Below are positions 10,704-53,848 of a stretch of 64,000 nt of DNA, piece after piece. Within the stretch, counting starts at the first letter, position 1. Each line of letters starts with the position of its first letter. Source of the DNA: Octopus vulgaris (taxonomy: Eukaryota); the NCBI GenBank assembly GCA_951406725.2, contig OX597830.1, forward strand, positions 42,718,001-42,782,000, written 5' to 3'. The notes beneath the pieces are model-generated. The model saw only the letters and a list, made by a program, of their open reading frames with translations, ran no database searches and was not told where the DNA came from. A program made the translations under genes and the position numbers.

Positions 10704-12560
10704 CAACAACAACAACAATGAAATTATTGTGTATAGTGCTCAGGTGCACTACAGCTTATCAAAGGTGCATGTACAATACATAGAATTATGTTCAAAAGTC
10801 AGGAACGTGAACAGTGTATGAGTCATGATATACGTGTGTGCATACATATGGATGGAGGGGGATTTTAGGTGTAGTGTTGGCGAATTTCAAGAAGCATGGC
10901 GGTTTTAAAGGATGCAATGTCTCAGCATCTAACAACTGATGCAAGAAGTTTGTTCCATGCTTCAGCAACACTGAGTGTTAAATAATGTTTCTGAAAGTCA
11001 TGGGAGCTGTGCTGTTTTCTAACTTTGTAGGAATGCCCACATGTGTGTAGGAATTACACACATGGAGTTCAAAAAGGTGCTCAAGGTGGTTGTTGGCACT
11101 ATGGTTAATAAATTTGTGGGTGTCTACCAAGTCAGTTGCCAGATGTTGGAGCTTCAATGTATCTATGCCCAGGGAAGCAAGGCATTCAGAGTATGGTAGA
11201 TGCCTGATGGAGGGTAATTGCTTGGTTGCATGTCCCTGAACAGTTTCCAGGAGGTCAATGTCCTGAGTAAGATAGGGGTTCCAGACTAGTGATGCAAATT
11301 CCAAGTGTAGCCACACCATAGCCATATACAACCTTAAATAGATAACTGGAGGGTGGCTGACAAAGGTCTTGCTGAGTGATGCTAAGACACTCTCAGCCTT
11401 CTTGTCAATTTTAGAGATGTGCTTTGTTCAGTGCAAATTGCTGCCGACAGTAATGCCCAGGTCACGTTCACAAGAAGACTCCTTGATTTTAGTGTTGTGG
11501 ATGGAGTATGTGGATGCTGGGTTTTTCCTCCTAAAATGCATGGTGGTATACTTGTCCACAGCCAGTTTGAGTTGCCAGTCTGTGATCCATTGCTGCATTG
11601 TGTCTATATCTGATTGCAGGAAAGATCTATAGTGTTCAGGATCTGTCCTTTTTATCTCAAGGTACAGCTTGATATCATCTGTATATTTCAGCTCTGTGGC
11701 ATTTTTTAAGTTGGCATCTATGTCATTAATGTATGCAACAAACAAAAGGGGACCAAAAAGAAATCCCTGTGGTACACCAGATAACATCTCATAGAGTAAA
11801 AAATGCTGTCCTAGAACCATGACTATCTTTTTTTGGCTGAGAATGAAGGAATCCAACCAGTTAAAAAGATCATCCTTCACACCCATTACAGAGAATTTTG
11901 CTATAAGTCTTTTGTGTGGCACAGAATTAAAAGCTTTAGCAAAATCAAGGTAAACAACATTCACCCATGAGCTGCCATCAGTGACCTGGGTGATGTCTTC
12001 AAGAAGCTTGATAAGTTGATCACAGCAGCTGGAGTGAGGGATGAATACAAATTGTGAGGGCCAGATAAGGCTGTGAGAATTCCAAAAGTTACTGAGTGTT
12101 CCTCTGACACAGGGTTTCATGCAGCTAGTAGGACTGACTGGGTGATAGTTGACAGGTAACATGCGGTCACCCTTTTTGATCAGAGGAATGACACTGGTAA
12201 TTAAGAACATTTCATTCTGTATTTGTCTGGATTCTTGATTAATGCCTGCTCTCATTTCATCAACTGTTGCTGATTTTTGTACTATAGACTTTATGTTTTA
12301 AGTATCCCCACAAATAAAATGTCCAGTTGTGTGTGGTTCAGTGAATGGTGGAAGATATTCCACTGAACTTCTTTGTCCAGTCTAATCAAGATAGGCCCTT
12401 ACATTACTGTGGTAATATTGGGCTGCTCATCTTGCTGCAAATAAAACTCCAGATTCTCTTGAATGCTTGGCATAACAGATTGTTACAGCAAGTTCAAGTA
12501 AGCAGGGGCAGTCAGAGTATCATACAAAAAGAATGGTTCAATTAATCCTCTAATGATAAG
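10668..12560 (-). mobile_element. CR1-clade LINE, 5'-truncated and degenerate
   Basis: ORFs 11428-12255 (YLDFAKAFNSVPH, GVPQG, YTDD) and 10978-11331 (HLEFASLVWNPYL...); (ATT)n-type tail at about 10668-10718. Confidence 0.9.
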
Positions 12561-39475: not shown

Positions 39476-40014
39476 TGTAACGAACTTTGTGTGTGTGAGA
39501 GATAGCAATCAATTTCCGTTGCTTTAATAATCCAGAATTCTACCCGTCAGAAACAAACAAGACGCAAATGTAAAATATATATAACTACTTTATTCTCTTA
39601 TGGTGAGAGATCAGTGGTATATCTGATATCCTTGGTTCTGGGCGCGCAAGGCTGAAAGTTAATCGATTGTAATATTTACAATGTTCAGCCGCTAAAAACA
39701 GAATGGGTTAAAGATGGCGTCCGGAACAGGGAAGATGATGTGGTCGGCAACAATTTGGTTAAAAGCTTTCGGCCGACTGCTGCTAGAATCAAATTCGGAC
39801 AGAGAGAAAATATACGTGACCGTTGCCTTCGATAGCCATGTCTCAAGTCGCTGCTTGCTGGACGCTGATGGTCAACGTCTTACGATCCCCTTGCCTCGGC
39901 TAACTGCTACGTAGGCAAAAGGGTTCTTCTTCCGGTGGTGAAAGCACCAACCCCGCACGCGCGAAATGCAAATGGACGCTGCGCGAGCGCGCGCCGTTGT
40001 ATAGGATCACTACA
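39476..40014 (-). mobile_element. Solo LTR (Gypsy-like)
   Basis: TGTAAC...CACTACA termini with 4-bp TSD aaac/aaac; AATAAA on the minus strand; homologous to 43861-44466. Confidence 0.8.
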
Positions 40015-43431: not shown

Positions 43432-43493
<62 letters not shown>

Positions 43494-43544
43494 ATGTATG
43501 TGTGTGTATGTATATACACTTTGATCTATATATACTTTGTATAT

Positions 43545-43843
43545 ACTTTGATCTGTTTTTTATATTGAATACGTATCGCCACCGTGGGCCACTACATCGA
43601 ACACTTTGAACATATAGCATAAATGAACTTACTTCAAACTATATATGAACTTTAAGATGTCTGACTCCGTTGTGAATTGTAAATGAATTTCTTGTGTTTG
43701 ATGGCATGAGCTGTCTTTTTTTATATATAACTTTTTTTGATAAGGTTCATTTCAGGAACCGAAACATGTTATAATGTATATATAAAAATTAAAAATTGTA
43801 TAATATAGCAGCATTTTCGAACTTCATTTTTTACAAATATATA
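43545..43843 (+). repeat. 5' pseudo-LTR of the PLE
   Basis: Direct repeat of 49095-49393. Confidence 0.95.
43716..43790 (+). ncRNA. Minimal type I hammerhead ribozyme motif, U3-A8 core variant
   Basis: TTGATAA (43737-43743), stem II GGTTC/GAACC, GAAA, palindromic stem III ACATGT, GUU triplet; distal stem I tttttatatata/tatatataaaaa. Confidence 0.75.
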
Positions 43844-43860
43844 CCTACTCGTATACGAGC

Positions 43861-44466
43861 TGTAAAGAACTTATTGTTGATATCTTCTCTCTTGTACTTT
43901 CGGGGTACAAGAAAGCAATCACTTTCCGTTGCTTTAATAATCCAGATTCTCTACCAGTCAGAAACAACAAGACGCAGACGTAAAAGATATATATACTACT
44001 TTATTCTCTTTCTTGGTAACAGTAACAATAAGTGGTTATCTGATGTCCTTGGTTCTGGGCGCGCAAGGCTGAAAGTTAATCGATTGTAATATTTACAATG
44101 TTCAGCCGCTAAAAACAGAACGGGTTAAAGATGGCGTCCGGAGGAAGAAGATGGGGTCTGCAACAATTTGGTTAAAGGCCTTTTGGTATGGTGCTGCTAG
44201 AATCAAGTCCGGACGGAGAGAAAATATGCGTGCCCGTCGCCTTCAGTCGCTGCTGTCCCAAGTCGCCGGCCGCCGCCGCCAGCGGTCAAACGCTCCACAA
44301 CCCCCTTGCCTTGGCTAACTACCACGTAGGCAAAAGGGTCGTGCCTCCGGTGGTTCGCGCATGCGCGAGAGGGCCCTTCCCCACCCTCTGCCTTGGCGAA
44401 GGCACCAACACGCGCGAAATAGAAAATGGACGGTGCACGCGCGCGCACCGCCACAGGATCACTACA
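43861..44466 (-). mobile_element. Solo LTR nested in the PLE 5' UTR
   Basis: TGTAAAG...CACTACA; homologous to 39476-40014; flanked by 13-bp ct(c/t)gtatacgagc duplication. Confidence 0.8.
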
Positions 44467-44878
44467 CTTGTATACGAGCTAATCCTATTATAAGTATCAC
44501 ATCACGTACGAGCTCCCGAAAATGCCTGCTAAAAAAGACACCAATGACATCTCCTCAATAAATGAAGAGATACTGAAAGAATTGAAAAGCATAAATTCAA
44601 ACCTAACAGCAGTGTTAAACAAACTCAACCTTAACACCTCGACCTTCTACACAAACTAACGAGGAAACCGAATCGAATAAAACACCCTCTGAAATATTCG
44701 AGAAAGTTGAAAATCTATGCGATACAATGACGACATTCTTCACAAACTTTACGAAACAAGAGCAACAAAAAGAAGGAACACATGAGAAGAACCGAGCAAC
44801 TTCAACATTACAAATAAAGAACCAAGTCCTCCCCAATGGAGAACACTACAGCGAAACAGAAAATTCGCTTTTTGGAAA

Positions 44879-45922
44879 ATGATACAAAATCAGAATAAAG
44901 CAGAGATTTACCAAAAATGGCTAGACTCAACACCCCTAGTCATACCCCCTAAATTACAAATCAAGCCCATCTCGGAAGAACCAGAAGAACAAAGAAAACT
45001 TAGAGAAAAAATGTCATTAGACAAAATGAAGATGGAAATAGAACTACTCAAGCTGAGAGCTAAGACGAATGGAGAAAAAGTAAAAACCATAGACGAGGAA
45101 ATCAACGAAGAAGTCATCAAACTAATAGACGACATCAAAACTGAAACATTACCAGCACTATGGAATGAAGAATGTGAAAAAGAGGAACTTAAGTCCCTCC
45201 AACGATGGGAAAAGAGCGCCATCTGGTTTCTAGATTATGAAACCAACTTCAAAAATGAACACATATCCAACAACCCCTTCATAAAATTAAGTAAATCAAA
45301 ACCAAATACCAACAGAACGGAACAACCACCAAGAAATCCTAACACACTTTACACCAGAAAAGTACACCTAAAACACACCCCACACTACCTACACCAACCC
45401 CAAAACACCTGCAGAGGCCCACCACACCAGTTCGAAAATAGACATACCAACAGAGCAGAACAACCACCAAGAAATCCAAACACACCCTACACCAGAAAAA
45501 TGCATTTAAAACGCACCCCACACTACCTACACCAACCCCAAAACACTTATAGGGTCCGACCACACCATTCCACGAACCTAAGAGCCACAACATACAATAC
45601 TATAAAATACAACCCACATAACCAAACCAAAACGCTACTACCAAACATCCACCCCAGGAACCAACCATACAAACATAACAAACAACAAATGCACTACGGA
45701 GGAAACAACTACCAACACAATATACCTGATGAACTAAGACGGAACACTAGGTACAACAACACACTCCAGAACAGAGCACCACAAACTCACTCTGACAATT
45801 ATAACAACATGAGACAGATAAATAGTAGCTTTGAACATAACTACACCAACCATTTTTTAGACCTTACACACAGGAACAGGGACACACGATGGCAAAGGAC
45901 AAACAAAAGAAACCTCAGGTAA
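44879..45922 (+). CDS. PLE ORF1 (charged helical/coiled-coil-like N half, N/H/P/Q-rich C half); probably began at ATG 44522
   Basis: 347-aa ORF directly upstream of and overlapping the RT ORF, with the same A/C-rich strand bias; upstream coding-like segments 44522-44659 and 44619-44882 in shifted frames. Confidence 0.8.
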   Translation: MIQNQNKAEIYQKWLDSTPLVIPPKLQIKPISEEPEEQRKLREKMSLDKMKMEIELLKLRAKTNGEKVKTIDEEINEEVIKLIDDIKTETLPALWNEECEKEELKSLQRWEKSAIWFLDYETNFKNEHISNNPFIKLSKSKPNTNRTEQPPRNPNTLYTRKVHLKHTPHYLHQPQNTCRGPPHQFENRHTNRAEQPPRNPNTPYTRKMHLKRTPHYLHQPQNTYRVRPHHSTNLRATTYNTIKYNPHNQTKTLLPNIHPRNQPYKHNKQQMHYGGNNYQHNIPDELRRNTRYNNTLQNRAPQTHSDNYNNMRQINSSFEHNYTNHFLDLTHRNRDTRWQRTNKRNLR

Positions 45923-48186
45923 TTAAGATAATCAATCTCTCAAACAAAGAACTTACACCTAACGAAATAAGCATACTCTCCAAAGGACTTAAATTTACAC
46001 CTACCCCACAACGTTCTAATTACTATGAAATGAAAGATGATATTTCGGAATTTTGCAGAAAACTAAGACTCACCGAGGCATTTCAAGACAAAAAAATAGA
46101 GGAGGACCCAATAGCTAGAAACAAGAGCAATTACACCCCCACCAAGGGAAAGAATAAAGCCTTAGACCGCTATTGTGACTACATAACTAATTTCCCGTTT
46201 CAATTCATCAAGAAACAAAAACACAGCCCTAACTTCAACAAAAGAGAATGGAACGACCTCATCAAACTAAGAGAAGACAAAACAATAACAATTAAGGAGG
46301 CAGATAAGGGCAACGCGATAGTAATAATGAATACAAACGATTATAAAAATTTAGTGCTATCCCTATTAAGAGATGAAACGTATTATGAAAGGGCCCAACA
46401 GTATAATCAGCAAAAAATAATGCATAACCTTAGGACATTAATCAACACATACCAAGAAGGACTCACGAACAAGGAGTATGAATACATCACTAACTTCAAA
46501 TGCAAATCGAGTTTGTTCTATGGTATCCCTAAGGTACACAAAAGCCAAATAATTAGAGAAACGTGCAAAACATCCACCGACACACTCATCAAAATCCCTT
46601 CACCAAATGATCTTAAACTAAGACCGATAATAGCAGGGCCAGCATGTGAAACTCACCGCCTCAGCAATTTCTTAGACACACTTCTTAAACCTTTCCTAAA
46701 ACACATTAAAAGCTACGTAAGAGACGATATAGATATGCTCAACCACCTCCCTAAAAGAGTCAATGAGAAAACCCTTCTAGTATCATTCGACGTAGTTAAT
46801 CTTTATTCTAACATCCCTCACAACCTAGGAATAGAAGCGATCACCTTCTGGCTGAATAACTACCCCTTTGAACTCCCAACTCACATAAACAAAGACCTTA
46901 TAATAGAAGGACTTAGATTCATTTTAGAGAACAATTATTTTATTTTTGACAATGATTTCTACAGACAAAGATCGGGAACAGCGATGGGCACGCATACTGC
47001 ACCATCTTTTGCCAACCTAGTGATGGGATACCTCGAGAAAATACTATACCGGATAACACTCGAGAAATATGGAAACACCTTCGCCACCTATATCCATAAC
47101 AACTGGAAAAGATACCTCGATGACTGTTTCATCATCTGGGACAAAGGTATAGAGAAACTTGAGGAATTTAAAATACTATTAAATGGAATAAATGACAATA
47201 TACAATTCACGATGGACCACAACGAAAAAGAATTACCATTTTTAGACATCCTCATTAAGAAAACCGGCAACAAAATAGAGACAGATATCTACTATAAACC
47301 GACAGACTCTAAACAGTACCTACCCTTTGATTCATGCCACCCACGACACACTAGAATGAATGTCCCTTTTTGTTTAGCTAGAAGGATTTGCACCATAATA
47401 TCAGACACAAACACCCGACACACACGTCTCCAGGAACTTAGAACCACACTCACAAATAGAAACTATCCACAGCCCCTAATAGACAGTGCAATCCAACGGG
47501 TACTTAAATTAAATATAGAAGACCTGAGACAAACAAAACCAAAAAAGAAAGAACAATTAAAAACCCTTCCCTACATCTCTACACACAACCCACTCAACAA
47601 TGAGGCCTTCAACACCATACTACAAAGCACAGCCCTACTAAAGGGAGACCCAAAGATGAACCGGATCCTCGAAACATACACCATCATTAAAAGTAAACGG
47701 CAACCAAAATCCTTGAAAAGGATTTTAACCCAAGCTACACTGCACTCAACATCAACCACAAAACCAGCAGTTAGAAAATGTGGAAGGCCCAACTGCGGAA
47801 TCTGTGTCATCTTGAAAGAAGGATCAGAATTTATACTGGAACAAGGCCACCAGTTCACCATTAGAACAAACTTCACCTGCGCATCAGAAAACTTAATTTA
47901 CGTCATAACATGCGCAGGCTGCAATAGGCAGTATATAGGCCATACAAAAAATAGCTTACGTAACAGGATGGGGGTGCATAAATCACAAATTAGAAACCCT
48001 GATTACCGCAAAATACCGGTCAGCGGACACATAGATAGATGTGCTGGAAATGTAAATCCGAAATTTACAACTAACCCGCTCTATAAATTCAGTGACAACG
48101 CAACCTTCACACAACGCCAAAATAAAGAACTGTATTTCATAAAAAAATTTAGACCAAGTTTAAACACCCTGGGCCAGGAATATTAA
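45889..48186 (+). CDS. Penelope-like reverse transcriptase + GIY-YIG endonuclease
   Basis: INLS..L...GLKF.PTP, ADKG, SFDVVNLYSNI, QRSGTAMG, RYLDDCF, LPFLD; Cys linker CGRPNCGIC; NLIY..TC..C...YIG.T....R...H; terminal E..FI.....LN; uninterrupted 765 aa. Confidence 0.97.
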   Translation: MAKDKQKKPQVIKIINLSNKELTPNEISILSKGLKFTPTPQRSNYYEMKDDISEFCRKLRLTEAFQDKKIEEDPIARNKSNYTPTKGKNKALDRYCDYITNFPFQFIKKQKHSPNFNKREWNDLIKLREDKTITIKEADKGNAIVIMNTNDYKNLVLSLLRDETYYERAQQYNQQKIMHNLRTLINTYQEGLTNKEYEYITNFKCKSSLFYGIPKVHKSQIIRETCKTSTDTLIKIPSPNDLKLRPIIAGPACETHRLSNFLDTLLKPFLKHIKSYVRDDIDMLNHLPKRVNEKTLLVSFDVVNLYSNIPHNLGIEAITFWLNNYPFELPTHINKDLIIEGLRFILENNYFIFDNDFYRQRSGTAMGTHTAPSFANLVMGYLEKILYRITLEKYGNTFATYIHNNWKRYLDDCFIIWDKGIEKLEEFKILLNGINDNIQFTMDHNEKELPFLDILIKKTGNKIETDIYYKPTDSKQYLPFDSCHPRHTRMNVPFCLARRICTIISDTNTRHTRLQELRTTLTNRNYPQPLIDSAIQRVLKLNIEDLRQTKPKKKEQLKTLPYISTHNPLNNEAFNTILQSTALLKGDPKMNRILETYTIIKSKRQPKSLKRILTQATLHSTSTTKPAVRKCGRPNCGICVILKEGSEFILEQGHQFTIRTNFTCASENLIYVITCAGCNRQYIGHTKNSLRNRMGVHKSQIRNPDYRKIPVSGHIDRCAGNVNPKFTTNPLYKFSDNATFTQRQNKELYFIKKFRPSLNTLGQEY

Positions 48187-48359
48187 AACAAAAGATAAGT
48201 CCTCCGAAAAGGAGAAGCAAAATTCCACCACGGCCGCTACCTTAAATAGTCACTCGCACTGACGGAAATATGCCTTAGTAAAAAAGGGAAAAAAATTTTT
48301 GTGTGCAAATCTGACCCTGATGGACTGACCACATACGATACAGCTAAGGGTCAGACCCG

Positions 48360-49040
48360 ATTCTGATTGGTCAACATGTTGATGACGTCTAGTTCTGCTA
48401 GAATGGACAGGATACAAACAGGGGGCAGAGATTAGTCAGAATATTGATGACGTCCTTTTCTACTTGACTAGTCACCTAACAAGAAACAGACAGGGGGCAG
48501 ATCTAATGCAGCTATAAGTCGTGATTGGGCAGAATCTTGATGACGTCCCGTTCTGCCTGACTAAGCCACCTAACGAAACGACTGGTCAAACAGGATACAG
48601 ACAAGAGGCAGTTATAATACAGCGATAGGTCACGATTGGTCAGAATGTTGATGACATCCAGTTCTGCTTGACTAAGCCACCTAACGAAAAGGGGCAGATC
48701 TAATACAGCTATAAGTCGTGATTGGTCAGAATCTTGATGACGTCCCGTTCTGCTTGACTAAGCCACCTAACGAAACGACTGGTCAAACAGGATACAGACA
48801 AGAGGCAGTTATAATACAGCGATAGGCCACGATTGGTCAGAATGTTGATGACGTCCCGTTCAGCTTGACTAAAGCCACCTAACGAAACGATTGGTCAAAA
48901 CGTTGATGACGTCACGCTACGCTGGATTGACCACCTAACAGGCATTATAAAACCCGAACATTTCACAAGACTCACCAGAATTCACCAGAATCACCCAGCG
49001 AACACCCACCATGGGTCATCACAATTGCTCAAGGTAAAAA
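48360..49040 (+). promoter_or_regulatory. Putative internal Pol II promoter in the PLE 3' region: 7x (ATTGG + TGACGTC) array, TATA box, mini-exon and splice donor
   Basis: Seven gattggtca..tgatgacgtc-type units (perfect TGACGTCA at 48907), TATAAAA at 48946, caccATGG at 49011, AAG|GTAAAA at 49033/49034. Confidence 0.65.
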
Positions 49041-49094
49041 TGAATTCCTCGCTCTTTCGGGAACATCAATCTTCTGTATTGACTGCTTTCCACC

Positions 49095-49382
49095 ACTTTG
49101 ATCTGTTTTTTATATTGAATACGTATCGCCACCGTGGGCCACTACATCGAACACTTTGAACAGATAGCATAAATGAACTTACTTCAAACTATATATGAAC
49201 TTTAAGATGTCTGACTCCGTTGTGAATTGTAAATGAATTTCTTGTGTTTGACGGCATGAGCTGTCTTTTTTTATATATAACTTTTTTTGATAAGGTTCAT
49301 TTCAGGAACCGAAACATGTTATAATGTATATATAAAAATTAAAAATTGTATAATATAGCAGCATTTTCGAACTTCATTTTTT

Positions 49383-49393
<11 letters not shown>
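49095..49393 (+). repeat. 3' pseudo-LTR of the PLE
   Basis: Direct repeat of 43545-43843, runs into (TA)n. Confidence 0.95.
49266..49340 (+). ncRNA. Second copy of the U3-A8 hammerhead motif
   Basis: Identical to 43716-43790. Confidence 0.75.
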
Positions 49394-49417
<24 letters not shown>

Positions 49418-49724
49418 TATATGTAAATATATATATTATACACACATATACATATCTCATATCTCATCTCATCCACACCTTCCTCAAACACACATACACA
49501 GACACACACAACCTACACTACTATACTTCTGCACTTGCTGACTTATAAACACTTACCGAAAATGTCACACATGCCACTCCCTCTCATATATTTGTCTCTA
49601 AAAACGGATTCACTCTGATACTTGTAAATATGCACCCACCTCTCCTCTCTTCCCATTCCCACCTGACCTCTTGTCCCCCCCCCCCGCTCTCACTGAATTT
49701 TCCTCTTCCCCAGTCCCTATGCTT

Positions 49725-49785
49725 TTCTGTTTCTCCTGATGAAGGATTAACATCAGAAACATTAAGATTTTTCTCTCTTCCTTTT
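49725..49785 (+). ncRNA. Degenerate hammerhead-like motif (relic of another PLE end)
   Basis: CTGATGA-aggat-taac-atca-GAAAC; stem II partly broken. Confidence 0.4.
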
Positions 49786-50436: not shown

Positions 50437-51345
50437 TGTCTGACATTATTCAGTTTTATTTTAAGATTTCTTGCCAACAGAGAAAGAGCTTGTTTCTAAC
50501 CTAGATGCAAGGCCTCCCTCATCGGAATTTCAGCATCAACAACAGGGTATTTTTGTTTCTATGCATGTATGTATATGTGCAGACTTTGCTTTATGTAGTT
50601 ACATGCATATAGCTGCATATGTAGACATGATCATATGTACTTAAATGATAAAACTTTTGGGAAGTTTGATGGCTTGGTTCTGTAGTCTTTGAATCAGCTT
50701 TCTCCTTTCTGGTTTTGAGAAGTATAACTAATCAAGATTGGTATTTAGGCAGTGTGTTACATATCCCAGGGCTCCAACAATTACAAGTATAAACCTGAAC
50801 TTGTAATCTGGATAGAGTAACTGCAGATTTCTCAGTAGTTTAGGTATTCTCTGTTTCACTGATCTTCAGCTTTATGTCAACATCAACAACCGTGCACAGT
50901 TGTATGTATGTATGTATGTATGTATGTATGTATGTATGTATGTATGTATGTATGTATGTGTGTGTGTATGTATGTAAGTATGTATGTATGTATGTATGTA
51001 TGTATGTATGCATGTATGTATGCATGCATGTATGTATGTGTGCATGCATGTATGTATGTGTGCATGTATGTATGTATGTATGTATGTATGTATGTATGTA
51101 TGTGTGTGTGTATGTATGTACGTATGTATGTATGTATGCATGTATGTGTGCATGTATGTATGTATGTATGCATGCATGTATGTATGTGTGCATGTATGTA
51201 TGTATGTATGTATGTATGTATGTGCATGTATGTATGTATGTGTGTGTGTATGTATGTATGCATGTATGTGTGTGTGTATGTATGCATGTATGTGTGCATG
51301 TATGCATGTATGTATGTATGTATGTATGTATGTATGTATATATGG

Positions 51346-52590: not shown

Positions 52591-52710
52591 CCATTGTATT
52601 TTATGCTTTGAACATTAACATATAAATGAGTATATTTATGCACAAATATTTGCTAATGTATTATGCATCAGTGTTTTTTACATATCTTTTATGGTATTTT
52701 CTATTTGCAG

Positions 52711-53848
52711 ATATCATCAAAAATATTTGTGTATCATCCAATTGATATCCATGTGTTCTCTGCTAATTTTATCTGTGTTCTGCTTTACCAATATGTTTTT
52801 TCTCATACACCACCAATTCGGTATTAAATCAACCAATGTAAATGATAATTCTGAAACTAAAGCATCAATTTGTGTCCCTCAAAAAAATATAGTCTTTCTG
52901 AAAGTACACAAAACTGGAAGTACAACGATTATGAATATACTACAAAGGTATGGCATTATAAACAACTTAAACTTTGTTCTACCAAAAAATGGACACTACC
53001 TTGGCAAAACTGAAACACTTATGGAAAATAAAATCCTTCCACCTCCTCAAAATGAGTCCTACAACATTCTTTGCAACCATGTTATTTATAATCAAAGTGC
53101 TTTTCAGAGTCTACTTCCAAGAAATATGTACTATTTTACAATTTTGCGAGAACCTTTAAGTCAATTTGTATCTGCTTTCTTGTATTATAGGAATGTGTGG
53201 AGAAATGAATATCTTCTGGCAGTACCTGGAGAACATTTTATAGGTGAATATCTAAAAAATCCAGTAAAGTATGAATCACTGCTAAAAAATCAGGGATTTT
53301 CTTACACAAATAACCGCATGTCATATGATTTAGGTTTGAAACTATCTGATTTCCATAGTGAGGCTAAAATTTCAAAGCATATTTCTGATTTGGATAAAGA
53401 CTTTCACTTAGTATTGATCCAGGAATATTTTGATATTTCAATGATTCTTCTGAAAAGAAAATTATGTTGGCAAATGAAAGATATGCTTTATATAGAAAGG
53501 AATGTAGCTTCTTCCAGAAATACTCCTATCTTAACAGCTGAAGATACAAACCGTTTTAAAAAATGGGCTAAAGCTGACTATATACTTTATGAACATTATT
53601 TGAAAGTATTTTGGCACAAAATAAGGACTGAAGAGGATATTTTGTCTGAAGTTTATCATTACCAATCATTACTATATCAAACAAAGAAATTTTGTATGAC
53701 CAAGAATTCTTTAGTTTTAGAAATACAAGCCAGTGTTTGGAACAAAGAAATACTTTTACTGAGAAAAGACTGTGACATTATGCTTAAAAGTGAATTGGAC
53801 TTAGTGTATGCTTTGCAGAGAGCATATAGGGAAAAACTAAATTTATGA
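52711..53848 (+). CDS. Galactose-3-O-sulfotransferase (GAL3ST / cerebroside sulfotransferase family), main exon
   Basis: Acceptor ttttctatttgcag| at 52710; N-terminal TM segment; PAPS-binding motifs IVFLKVHKTGSTT and TILREP..QF.S.F.YY; N.M.YDLG, F.LVLI.EYFD.S.ILLKR.LCW, D..LY.H. Paralogue number cannot be assigned by eye. Confidence 0.95.

Follow-up and report, generated by a model that had tools for sequence, protein, structure and literature searches.

A probable minimal hammerhead with a U3-A8 core pair in both terminal repeats of an octopus Penelope-like element

A Penelope-like element (PLE) carrying the same hammerhead-like motif in both of its terminal direct repeats (pLTRs) was found in a 64-kb window of the Octopus vulgaris genome, the window being the whole stretch of DNA that was analyzed (64,000 nt). 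The motif is probably a minimal type I hammerhead of a two-ORF PLE, in which U3-A8 has likely taken the place of the C3-G8 pair of the core, and it would likely cut slowly, as a dimer or with the help of a protein.

The host is an endonuclease-containing PLE, with a reverse transcriptase (RT) followed by a GIY-YIG domain between pLTR direct repeats, and was organized as follows:
43434..43499, no strand: (AT)n microsatellite of the 5' flank
43545..43843, plus strand: 5' pLTR, a 299-nt direct repeat
43844..43862, plus strand: likely start of the "tail" beyond the pLTR, with the palindrome CTCGTATACGAG at 43848-59
44522..45922, plus strand: ORF1 region, without a Pfam match and divided among three frames in the window copy
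45841..48186, plus strand: RT and GIY-YIG open frame, 781 aa from stop to stop
47779-47805, plus strand: C-x4-C-x2-C linker (CGRPNCGIC), which precedes the endonuclease
48187..49094, plus strand: 3' UTR, with tandem repeats at 48430-48888 that contain ATTGG and TGACGT words
48946, plus strand: TATAAA, a putative promoter-like word
49095..49393, plus strand: 3' pLTR, 299 nt, ending in the (TA)n microsatellite
49387-49455: (TA)n microsatellite of the 3' side

Pfam RVT_1 and GIY-YIG both scored above the cut-off in the 781-aa frame. The two pLTRs differed at 2 sites, both outside the hammerhead motif, and TA microsatellites lay on either flank of the element. The linker agreed with the C-x(2-5)-CxxC pattern that the accessible text of PMC8557442 gives as a mark of Neptune and Nematis elements, the RT tree of the relatives holding unnamed loci only. 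A non-LTR retrozyme, whose tandem unit would be short, non-coding and equipped with a canonical hammerhead, was rejected, as the unit here is 5550 nt long and codes for protein. At the 5' junction (43518-43555), short repeated pLTR starts (ACTTTGATCT, ACTTTG and ACTTTGATCTG) were parted by TA runs, which suggests repeated template jumps at insertion.

In the DNA of the family, the tail runs on into the sequence that is found here after 44480 (contig joint 43850-44470, loose ends at 43861). One contig of the DNA run X7, with a depth of 137.8, skipped 43851-44469, and thus the window copy carries a nested repeat:
43851..44469, no strand: nested repeat of 619 nt in the tail palindrome, flanked by the 14-nt near-duplicate CTYGTATACGAGCT

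Its depth greatly exceeded the depth at the start of ORF1 next to it. A diverged copy, 83% identical, was present at 39500-39939, and about 75 nt (about 44046-44121) were identical between both copies. The GC-rich part contained GCGCATGCGC at 44357 and AAGATGGCG at 44128, which we take to be NRF1-like and YY1-like words, respectively, and a variant in the family contigs altered both arms of a hairpin near 43893-43913. ORF1 was broken in the window copy by two frame changes within 44522-44882, where the family contigs showed 1-2 gap letters; these breaks may be peculiar to the window copy or be assembly errors. Elsewhere in the window, a galactose-3-O-sulfotransferase-like open frame (52619-53848), a second, non-Penelope RT fragment (10978-12297, minus strand) and a family of dispersed repeats that end in (GAT)n, with at least 9 copies, were observed.

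The hammerhead motif of the 5' pLTR and its second copy comprised the following parts, in standard hammerhead numbering:
43718..43788, plus strand: copy 1, by the outer limits of stem I, with a weak proximal part at 43731-36/43771-76
43718-29/43777-88, plus strand: distal stem I helix of copy 1, 12 bp, AU-rich, as predicted by folding
43737..43743, plus strand: core strand U3-U4-G5-A6-U7-A8-A9, reading UUGAUAA, with U3 at 43737 and A8 at 43742
43744-48/43756-60, plus strand: stem II, GGUUC/GAACC, with the 7-nt loop AUUUCAG (43744..43760 as a whole)
43761-64, plus strand: G12-A13-A14-A15.1, sequence GAAA
43764-69, plus strand: palindrome ACAUGU of stem III, with U16.1 at 43769
43770, plus strand: U17, with the predicted cut at 43770/43771, placed by the numbering
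49268..49338, plus strand: copy 2, with U3 at 49287 and the predicted cut after 49320

The second copy was identical to the first and lay 5550 nt downstream. A preliminary description had reported a UUGAUAA core with U3 and A8, GAAA, a palindromic ACAUGU, a perfect 5-bp stem II and a weak proximal stem I, and each of these was recovered in its place. In the predicted folding, the stem II pairs had probabilities of 0.98-0.99, and G10.1-C11.1 closed the stem in the window copy (p at least 0.98). The proximal stem I reads, in order, U-A, U.U, U-A, U-A, U.U and C-G before the distal 12-bp helix is reached, with predicted pair probabilities of 0.008-0.22. Positions 2.1 and 1.1 are able to pair (p = 0.008), and the adjoining position is U.U, which leaves one contiguous pair at the core. 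The predicted self-duplex of ACAUGU had an energy of -8.4 kcal/mol; the palindrome lengthens to 8 bp if A14 pairs with U17, a pairing that could, in the folding model, lead to mis-folding of the core.

The motif contained the core N3-U4-G5-A6-N7-N8-A9 with a Watson-Crick 3-8 pair (as U3-A8), G12-A13-A14-A15.1, U16.1-H17 and a palindromic 15.1-16.1 segment that permits a dimer (ACAUGU). It failed the strict C3/G8 hammerhead consensus, and a search for CUGANGA would miss it, as had been pointed out. Its position on the sense strand of both pLTRs, with the RT and GIY-YIG domains between them, is that of PLE minimal hammerheads, to which it had been assigned for its palindrome. The extra nucleotide separating position 9 from position 10.1, which is usual though not universal in PLE minimal hammerheads, was absent, and it was likewise missing in the close relatives L007 and L082.

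A descriptor composed of UUGANAA, 5 Watson-Crick pairs, GAAA, stem III and UH gave two matches in the 64-kb window, namely the two pLTR copies, where 0.005 matches per window were expected by chance (200 local dinucleotide shuffles); the expectation rose to 0.085 per shuffled window when N3 and N8 were left free. The descriptor searches revealed no canonical hammerhead at any other place in the element. No Rfam hammerhead match was obtained at E<=1 for the whole window or at E<=10 for 43600-44300, the output consisting of microsatellite-driven miRNA matches and other sub-threshold ones. That the motif is a chance look-alike in AT-rich DNA, as the lack of an Rfam match, the free N3/N8 expectation and the E=2 score with the relatives' model described below would have it, is highly improbable and largely refuted by position and relatives, since the motif is on the sense strand of the pLTR and follows a 3' UTR rich in TGACGT, at the place where the C3-G8 hammerhead of close relatives sits, and the searches showed no canonical hammerhead elsewhere in the element.

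Another word that resembles a hammerhead, CUGAUGU...GAAA at 44040, was discounted: it lacks A9, its diverged copy near 39624 reads A at position 8 with C3 unchanged, and its GAAA pairs within another predicted helix. The folding z-score of the segment was -0.63. Separately, a decayed C3-G8 minimal hammerhead-like motif with a broken stem II was noted at 49729-49771, 340 nt past the element, and at 50869 (minus strand) a CUGAAGA core was present that has a stem II of 5 bp, a long loop and a stem III of 5 bp but failed the stem I test.

To compare element families, 83 related loci were fetched with an RT-endonuclease alignment of 29 of 120 listed homologues. They comprised 80 metagenome loci (the best 80 of at least 426) and 3 genome loci; no relatives were found among viral contigs. 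Several PLE RT-endonuclease sequences are recorded as belonging to bacterial genomes or symbionts (L081, L082 and L083; proteins P0027, P0037 and P0064); they are most likely animal DNA within the respective assemblies. ORF1 homologues were present in 6 of the 83 loci.

With N3 and N8 left free, the descriptor matched 31 times on the sense strand, and all 31 matches were Watson-Crick paired at 3-8 (23 C-G, 6 U-A, 1 G-C and 1 A-U), repeated copies being included (L061, L069, L083, and L050, which equals L061). The antisense strands of the same loci gave 4 matches (3 C-G and 1 A-A), and 40 shuffles of the 83 loci gave 1.6 matches per set, 22% of them paired at 3-8. One of the U3-A8 matches, L072, is located within the RT match and probably arose by chance. 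U17 was present in 16 of the 31 sense matches, and 29 of them had at least 3 contiguous proximal stem I pairs, a feature that the descriptor filter favors; judged by sequence, stem I of the window copy is weaker than in most relatives. By eye, C3-G8 motifs with short stems II or U.U at 10.1-11.1 were recognized in close relatives that the descriptor had missed (L001, L002, L003, L008, L009, L010, L014 and L081), and L004 had a doubtful G3/G8 core. L005 showed U3 opposite G8 plus an extra U, and its site at about 1925 may be a U3.G8 intermediate. The rarer core pairs G3-C8 and A3-U8 were seen at L030 103 and L063 1969. Extreme minimal hammerheads, with U10.1.U11.1 closure, a 2-bp stem II or almost no stem II, were observed in close relatives at the following positions:
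L003 3050; L008 1593; L009 2534; L002 4105; L001 3757; L010 about 840; L014 about 1870

In an RT tree of 34 segments from loci with a called motif, each given one label on the assumption that the motif belongs to that RT, a starred clade of 10 rows held the window's element together with 9 rows that were all C3-G8. The starred branches forced 5 changes of the U-A label, and still 5 when L072 was dropped, because its sister L074 carries the U-A label. The nearest row by path, L007, has a stem II without the insert, ACAUGU and U17, as in the window, but C3-G8. A covariance model built from 21 C3-G8 relatives, and hence holding C3-G8 cores only, scored the window motif at 10.7 bits with E=2, which placed it 11th-12th among 39 matches in the window; its best match in the window was the motif at 49729-49771 (22.5 bits). 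Five U3-A8 loci were searched with this model, and L022, L069 and L064 were found at E<=0.13, while the motifs of L074 and L072 were missed. Among 21 other loci, the motifs of L063, L069, L022 and L002 were recovered at E<0.01, and those of L074, L030 and L082 were missed.

Variation within the family was read from contigs of four public runs on 43545-44300, not from copies aligned one by one. The numbers of matching contigs (941, 286, 78 and 679 per run) point to a high-copy family, summed depth being no measure of copy number. Among 40 of the 47 variants, 9 substitution sites were listed over 43545-43790, and the 2 of them within 43717-43790 were 43717 T>C and 43760 C>T. The exchange at 43760, which is position 11.1, gives G10.1.U11.1 and accounted for about 93, 92, 45 and 92% of the depth in the four runs, and T carried 82% of the depth at this position in a fifth run. 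This C11.1-to-U exchange is the one common change in core and stems and keeps a G.U pair, which was also present in 5 of the 21 aligned relatives. No C3 or G8 variant occurred among the same 40 of 47 variants, and U3-A8 appears fixed in the family; hence no covariation was seen within it, nor do the two identical copies show any.

In two runs guessed to be RNA, contigs led from the 3' UTR across the predicted cut site and on into (TA)n, and thus either molecules that had stayed uncut or DNA must have been present. Such contigs show neither ends nor strand, nor the share of cut molecules, and none of the listed runs that matched the element was recorded as RNA. Compensation at 3-8, which the preliminary description took to argue for selection on function, is supported by the comparison of different element families (31 of 31 paired against 22% in shuffles) and not by copies of the window's own family. 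In the latter, no C3/G8 variant was listed and stem II pairing was kept.

Two further features of the element bear on the expression of its proteins. One is a heptamer in the overlap of the two frames:
45853..45859, plus strand: U UUU UUA, predicted frameshift site, in phase where ORF1 overlaps the RT frame at -1 (45841-45922)

Among 39 rows examined, 14 distinct loci including the window had an upstream frame of at least 95 codons that overlapped the RT frame at -1. The overlap of 8 of these 14 two-ORF loci contained an in-phase U UUU UUA, and U UUU UUG was seen by eye in three more (L002, L013 and L082); the background of the heptamer was 1 in 4720 codons of ORF1 bodies. Besides the window, the U UUU UUA loci were:
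L001 1330; L003 549; L004 586; L006 3263; L010 2127; L029 936; L080 2923

In 9 of the 14 loci no ATG lay between the upstream stop and the N-terminal motif of the RT; the window has one. No stable structure was predicted downstream of the window heptamer (-3.3 kcal/mol). A programmed -1 frameshift at the conserved heptamer, yielding an ORF1-RT-endonuclease fusion, is predicted. Frameshifting of a PLE ORF1 may already be known, since the legend of Fig. 1 in PMC8557442 describes ORF1 as separable by a frameshift in some PLE types; apart from this legend, programmed ribosomal frameshifting in PLEs was not found in the literature searched, and the supplement of that paper may name the clades.

The other feature is the 3' UTR. 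TGACGT or its complement occurred at least twice between the end of the ORF and the hammerhead or pLTR in 9 of 13 elements (0.25 in shuffles), namely:
window 48187-49094; L001; L002; L003; L007; L008; L010; L081; L082

In the window, TGACGT, presumably a CRE-like promoter word, alternates with ATTGG in tandem repeats upstream of the TATAAA at 48946, and these words are a possible promoter for the next tandem copy. An intron that would have its donor-like AG|GTAA at 49032 (first letter of the word), span the pLTR and end at an AG near 44495 is a guess; no such joint was seen among 15 of the 17 listed.

Taken together, these data are best explained by the minimal hammerhead proposed above. A tandem or read-through transcript would bring two motif copies together, their ACAUGU palindromes would pair and form stem III in trans, and A8 would hold U3 so that the active site could form. 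Cleavage after U17 (43770 and 49320) would release a 5550-nt unit, which could be circularized. At its 3' end the genomic copy oversteps the predicted cut site by 73 nt, and at its 5' end 226 nt lie upstream of the cut site. By this geometry, a linear RNA running from cut to cut could not have served as template for this copy, which would rather have been made from RNA that was uncut or multimeric, or from a circle copied round more than once. Low ribozyme activity fits this picture.

Against activity count the weak proximal stem I and the E=2 score. A hammerhead by descent that is catalytically dead or nearly so, in which U3-A8 and the mismatched stem I are drift and the motif is a dispensable passenger of a recently amplified master element, is a real if minor possibility. 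The poor proximal stem I and the weak covariance score agree with it, as do a young family in which conservation cannot show (2 listed substitution sites in 43717-43790) and genomic copies that span both cut sites. Moreover, the anole element inserts despite hammerhead mutants (PMC11167929) and Naiads thrive without canonical hammerheads (PMC8557442), according to the accessible text of these papers. However, both 3-8 partners have changed together, on at least 5 branches, every other core position is intact, and the common stem II variant of the family keeps its pairing.

More speculatively, and with a low likelihood in our view, U3-A8 and the two U.U mismatches at the core would constitute a tuned, protein-gated switch of the two-ORF clade. 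The 3'-UTR promoter would drive the next tandem copy, ORF1 and the -1 fusion would be gag-pol-like, and the element's own protein would license late dimeric cleavage and circularization. If so, the repeated independent switches from C3-G8 to U3-A8 would record selection for a slow hammerhead.

It is quite improbable that another fold is the active one, with a monomeric stem III ACAU/AUGU (43764-67/43774-77, 6-nt loop) and a cut at GUA after 43778. The hairpin exists, with pair probabilities of 0.08-0.14, similar to those of the proximal stem I pairs (0.01-0.22), but position 1.1 (U43779) would face U2.1, stem I would be possible only with about 8 nt looped out beside the core, and close relatives use the short palindrome register.

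The probable minimal hammerhead of the window by itself matters little, as it is one more family of a described variant. Across PLE families, the 3-8 pair was kept with several U-A switches, which argues that minimal motifs are selected for the catalytic fold; their role in transposition is nevertheless unsettled. Searches limited to CUGANGA undercount PLE hammerheads. The intact RT-endonuclease frame and the near-identical pLTRs make this element a convenient case for protein-assisted cleavage, and the frameshift and 3' promoter leads, which bear on protein expression in this PLE clade, may outweigh the hammerhead in worth.

The novelty implied for the U3-A8 core in the preliminary description is not supported. 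The pair has been published before, both in natural hammerheads (PMC3088659) and in PLEs (PMC4209133), as the accessible text of both papers shows, and the window adds one family. In the former, C3-G8 covaries to U3-A8 in several natural hammerheads, and compensated 3-8 pairs are stated to be active in vitro. In the latter, about 1,300 U3-A8 matches in Schistosoma mansoni were found by way of a Cercyon PLE; similar motifs may stand in its supplements. The literature searched held no paper on a C3U plus G8A exchange in hammerheads, this motif was not found by title or abstract among the listed matches on octopus Penelope hammerheads, and a term search for "U3-A8" had no hit in the accessible text of a 2026 retrozyme preprint (10.64898/2026.07.22.740005).

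Among known systems, and as far as the accessible parts of the respective papers describe them, the motif resembles the Cercyon-type PLE minimal hammerheads (Cervera and De la Peña, 2014; PMC4209133) in being of type I, in its presence in both pLTRs and in its palindromic stem III, U3-A8 core, G10.1-C11.1 pair and ill-defined stem I. Those hammerheads need a partner copy for stem III, and cleaved weakly in vitro as dimers and not as monomers. The window motif differs from them in lacking the nucleotide between 9 and 10.1, in its 5-bp stem II and 6-nt palindrome, and in the two U.U mismatches beside the core with a 12-bp distal helix; its host element, unlike theirs, has a Cys linker and an upstream ORF. 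The natural U3-A8 hammerheads of Perreault et al. (2011; PMC3088659) have the same compensatory core pair, while the window motif is borne by a retroelement and probably needs a partner copy.

With the Anolis Poseidon element PAc (PMC11167929) the window's element shares a pLTR hammerhead, AT-rich targets, and copies whose ends lie downstream of the cut site, at RT start sites of the tail type. The anole hammerhead was cleaved only with the element's protein, in dependence on the 3-8 pair, and was not needed for insertion in vitro. In PAc the pair is C3-G8 and the motif overlaps the start codon, whereas about 130 nt (in the family form) or 750 nt (in the window copy) separate the window motif from the ORF1 that follows it. 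Finally, the Neptune/Nematis-type PLEs (Craig et al., 2021; PMC8557442) have in common with the window's family the order of RT, C-x(2-5)-CxxC linker and GIY-YIG, the pLTRs, the tail, (TA)n targets and a hammerhead near the 3' end; in the window's family, in contrast, ORF1 and the RT frame share a -1 overlap in which a slippery heptamer is conserved.
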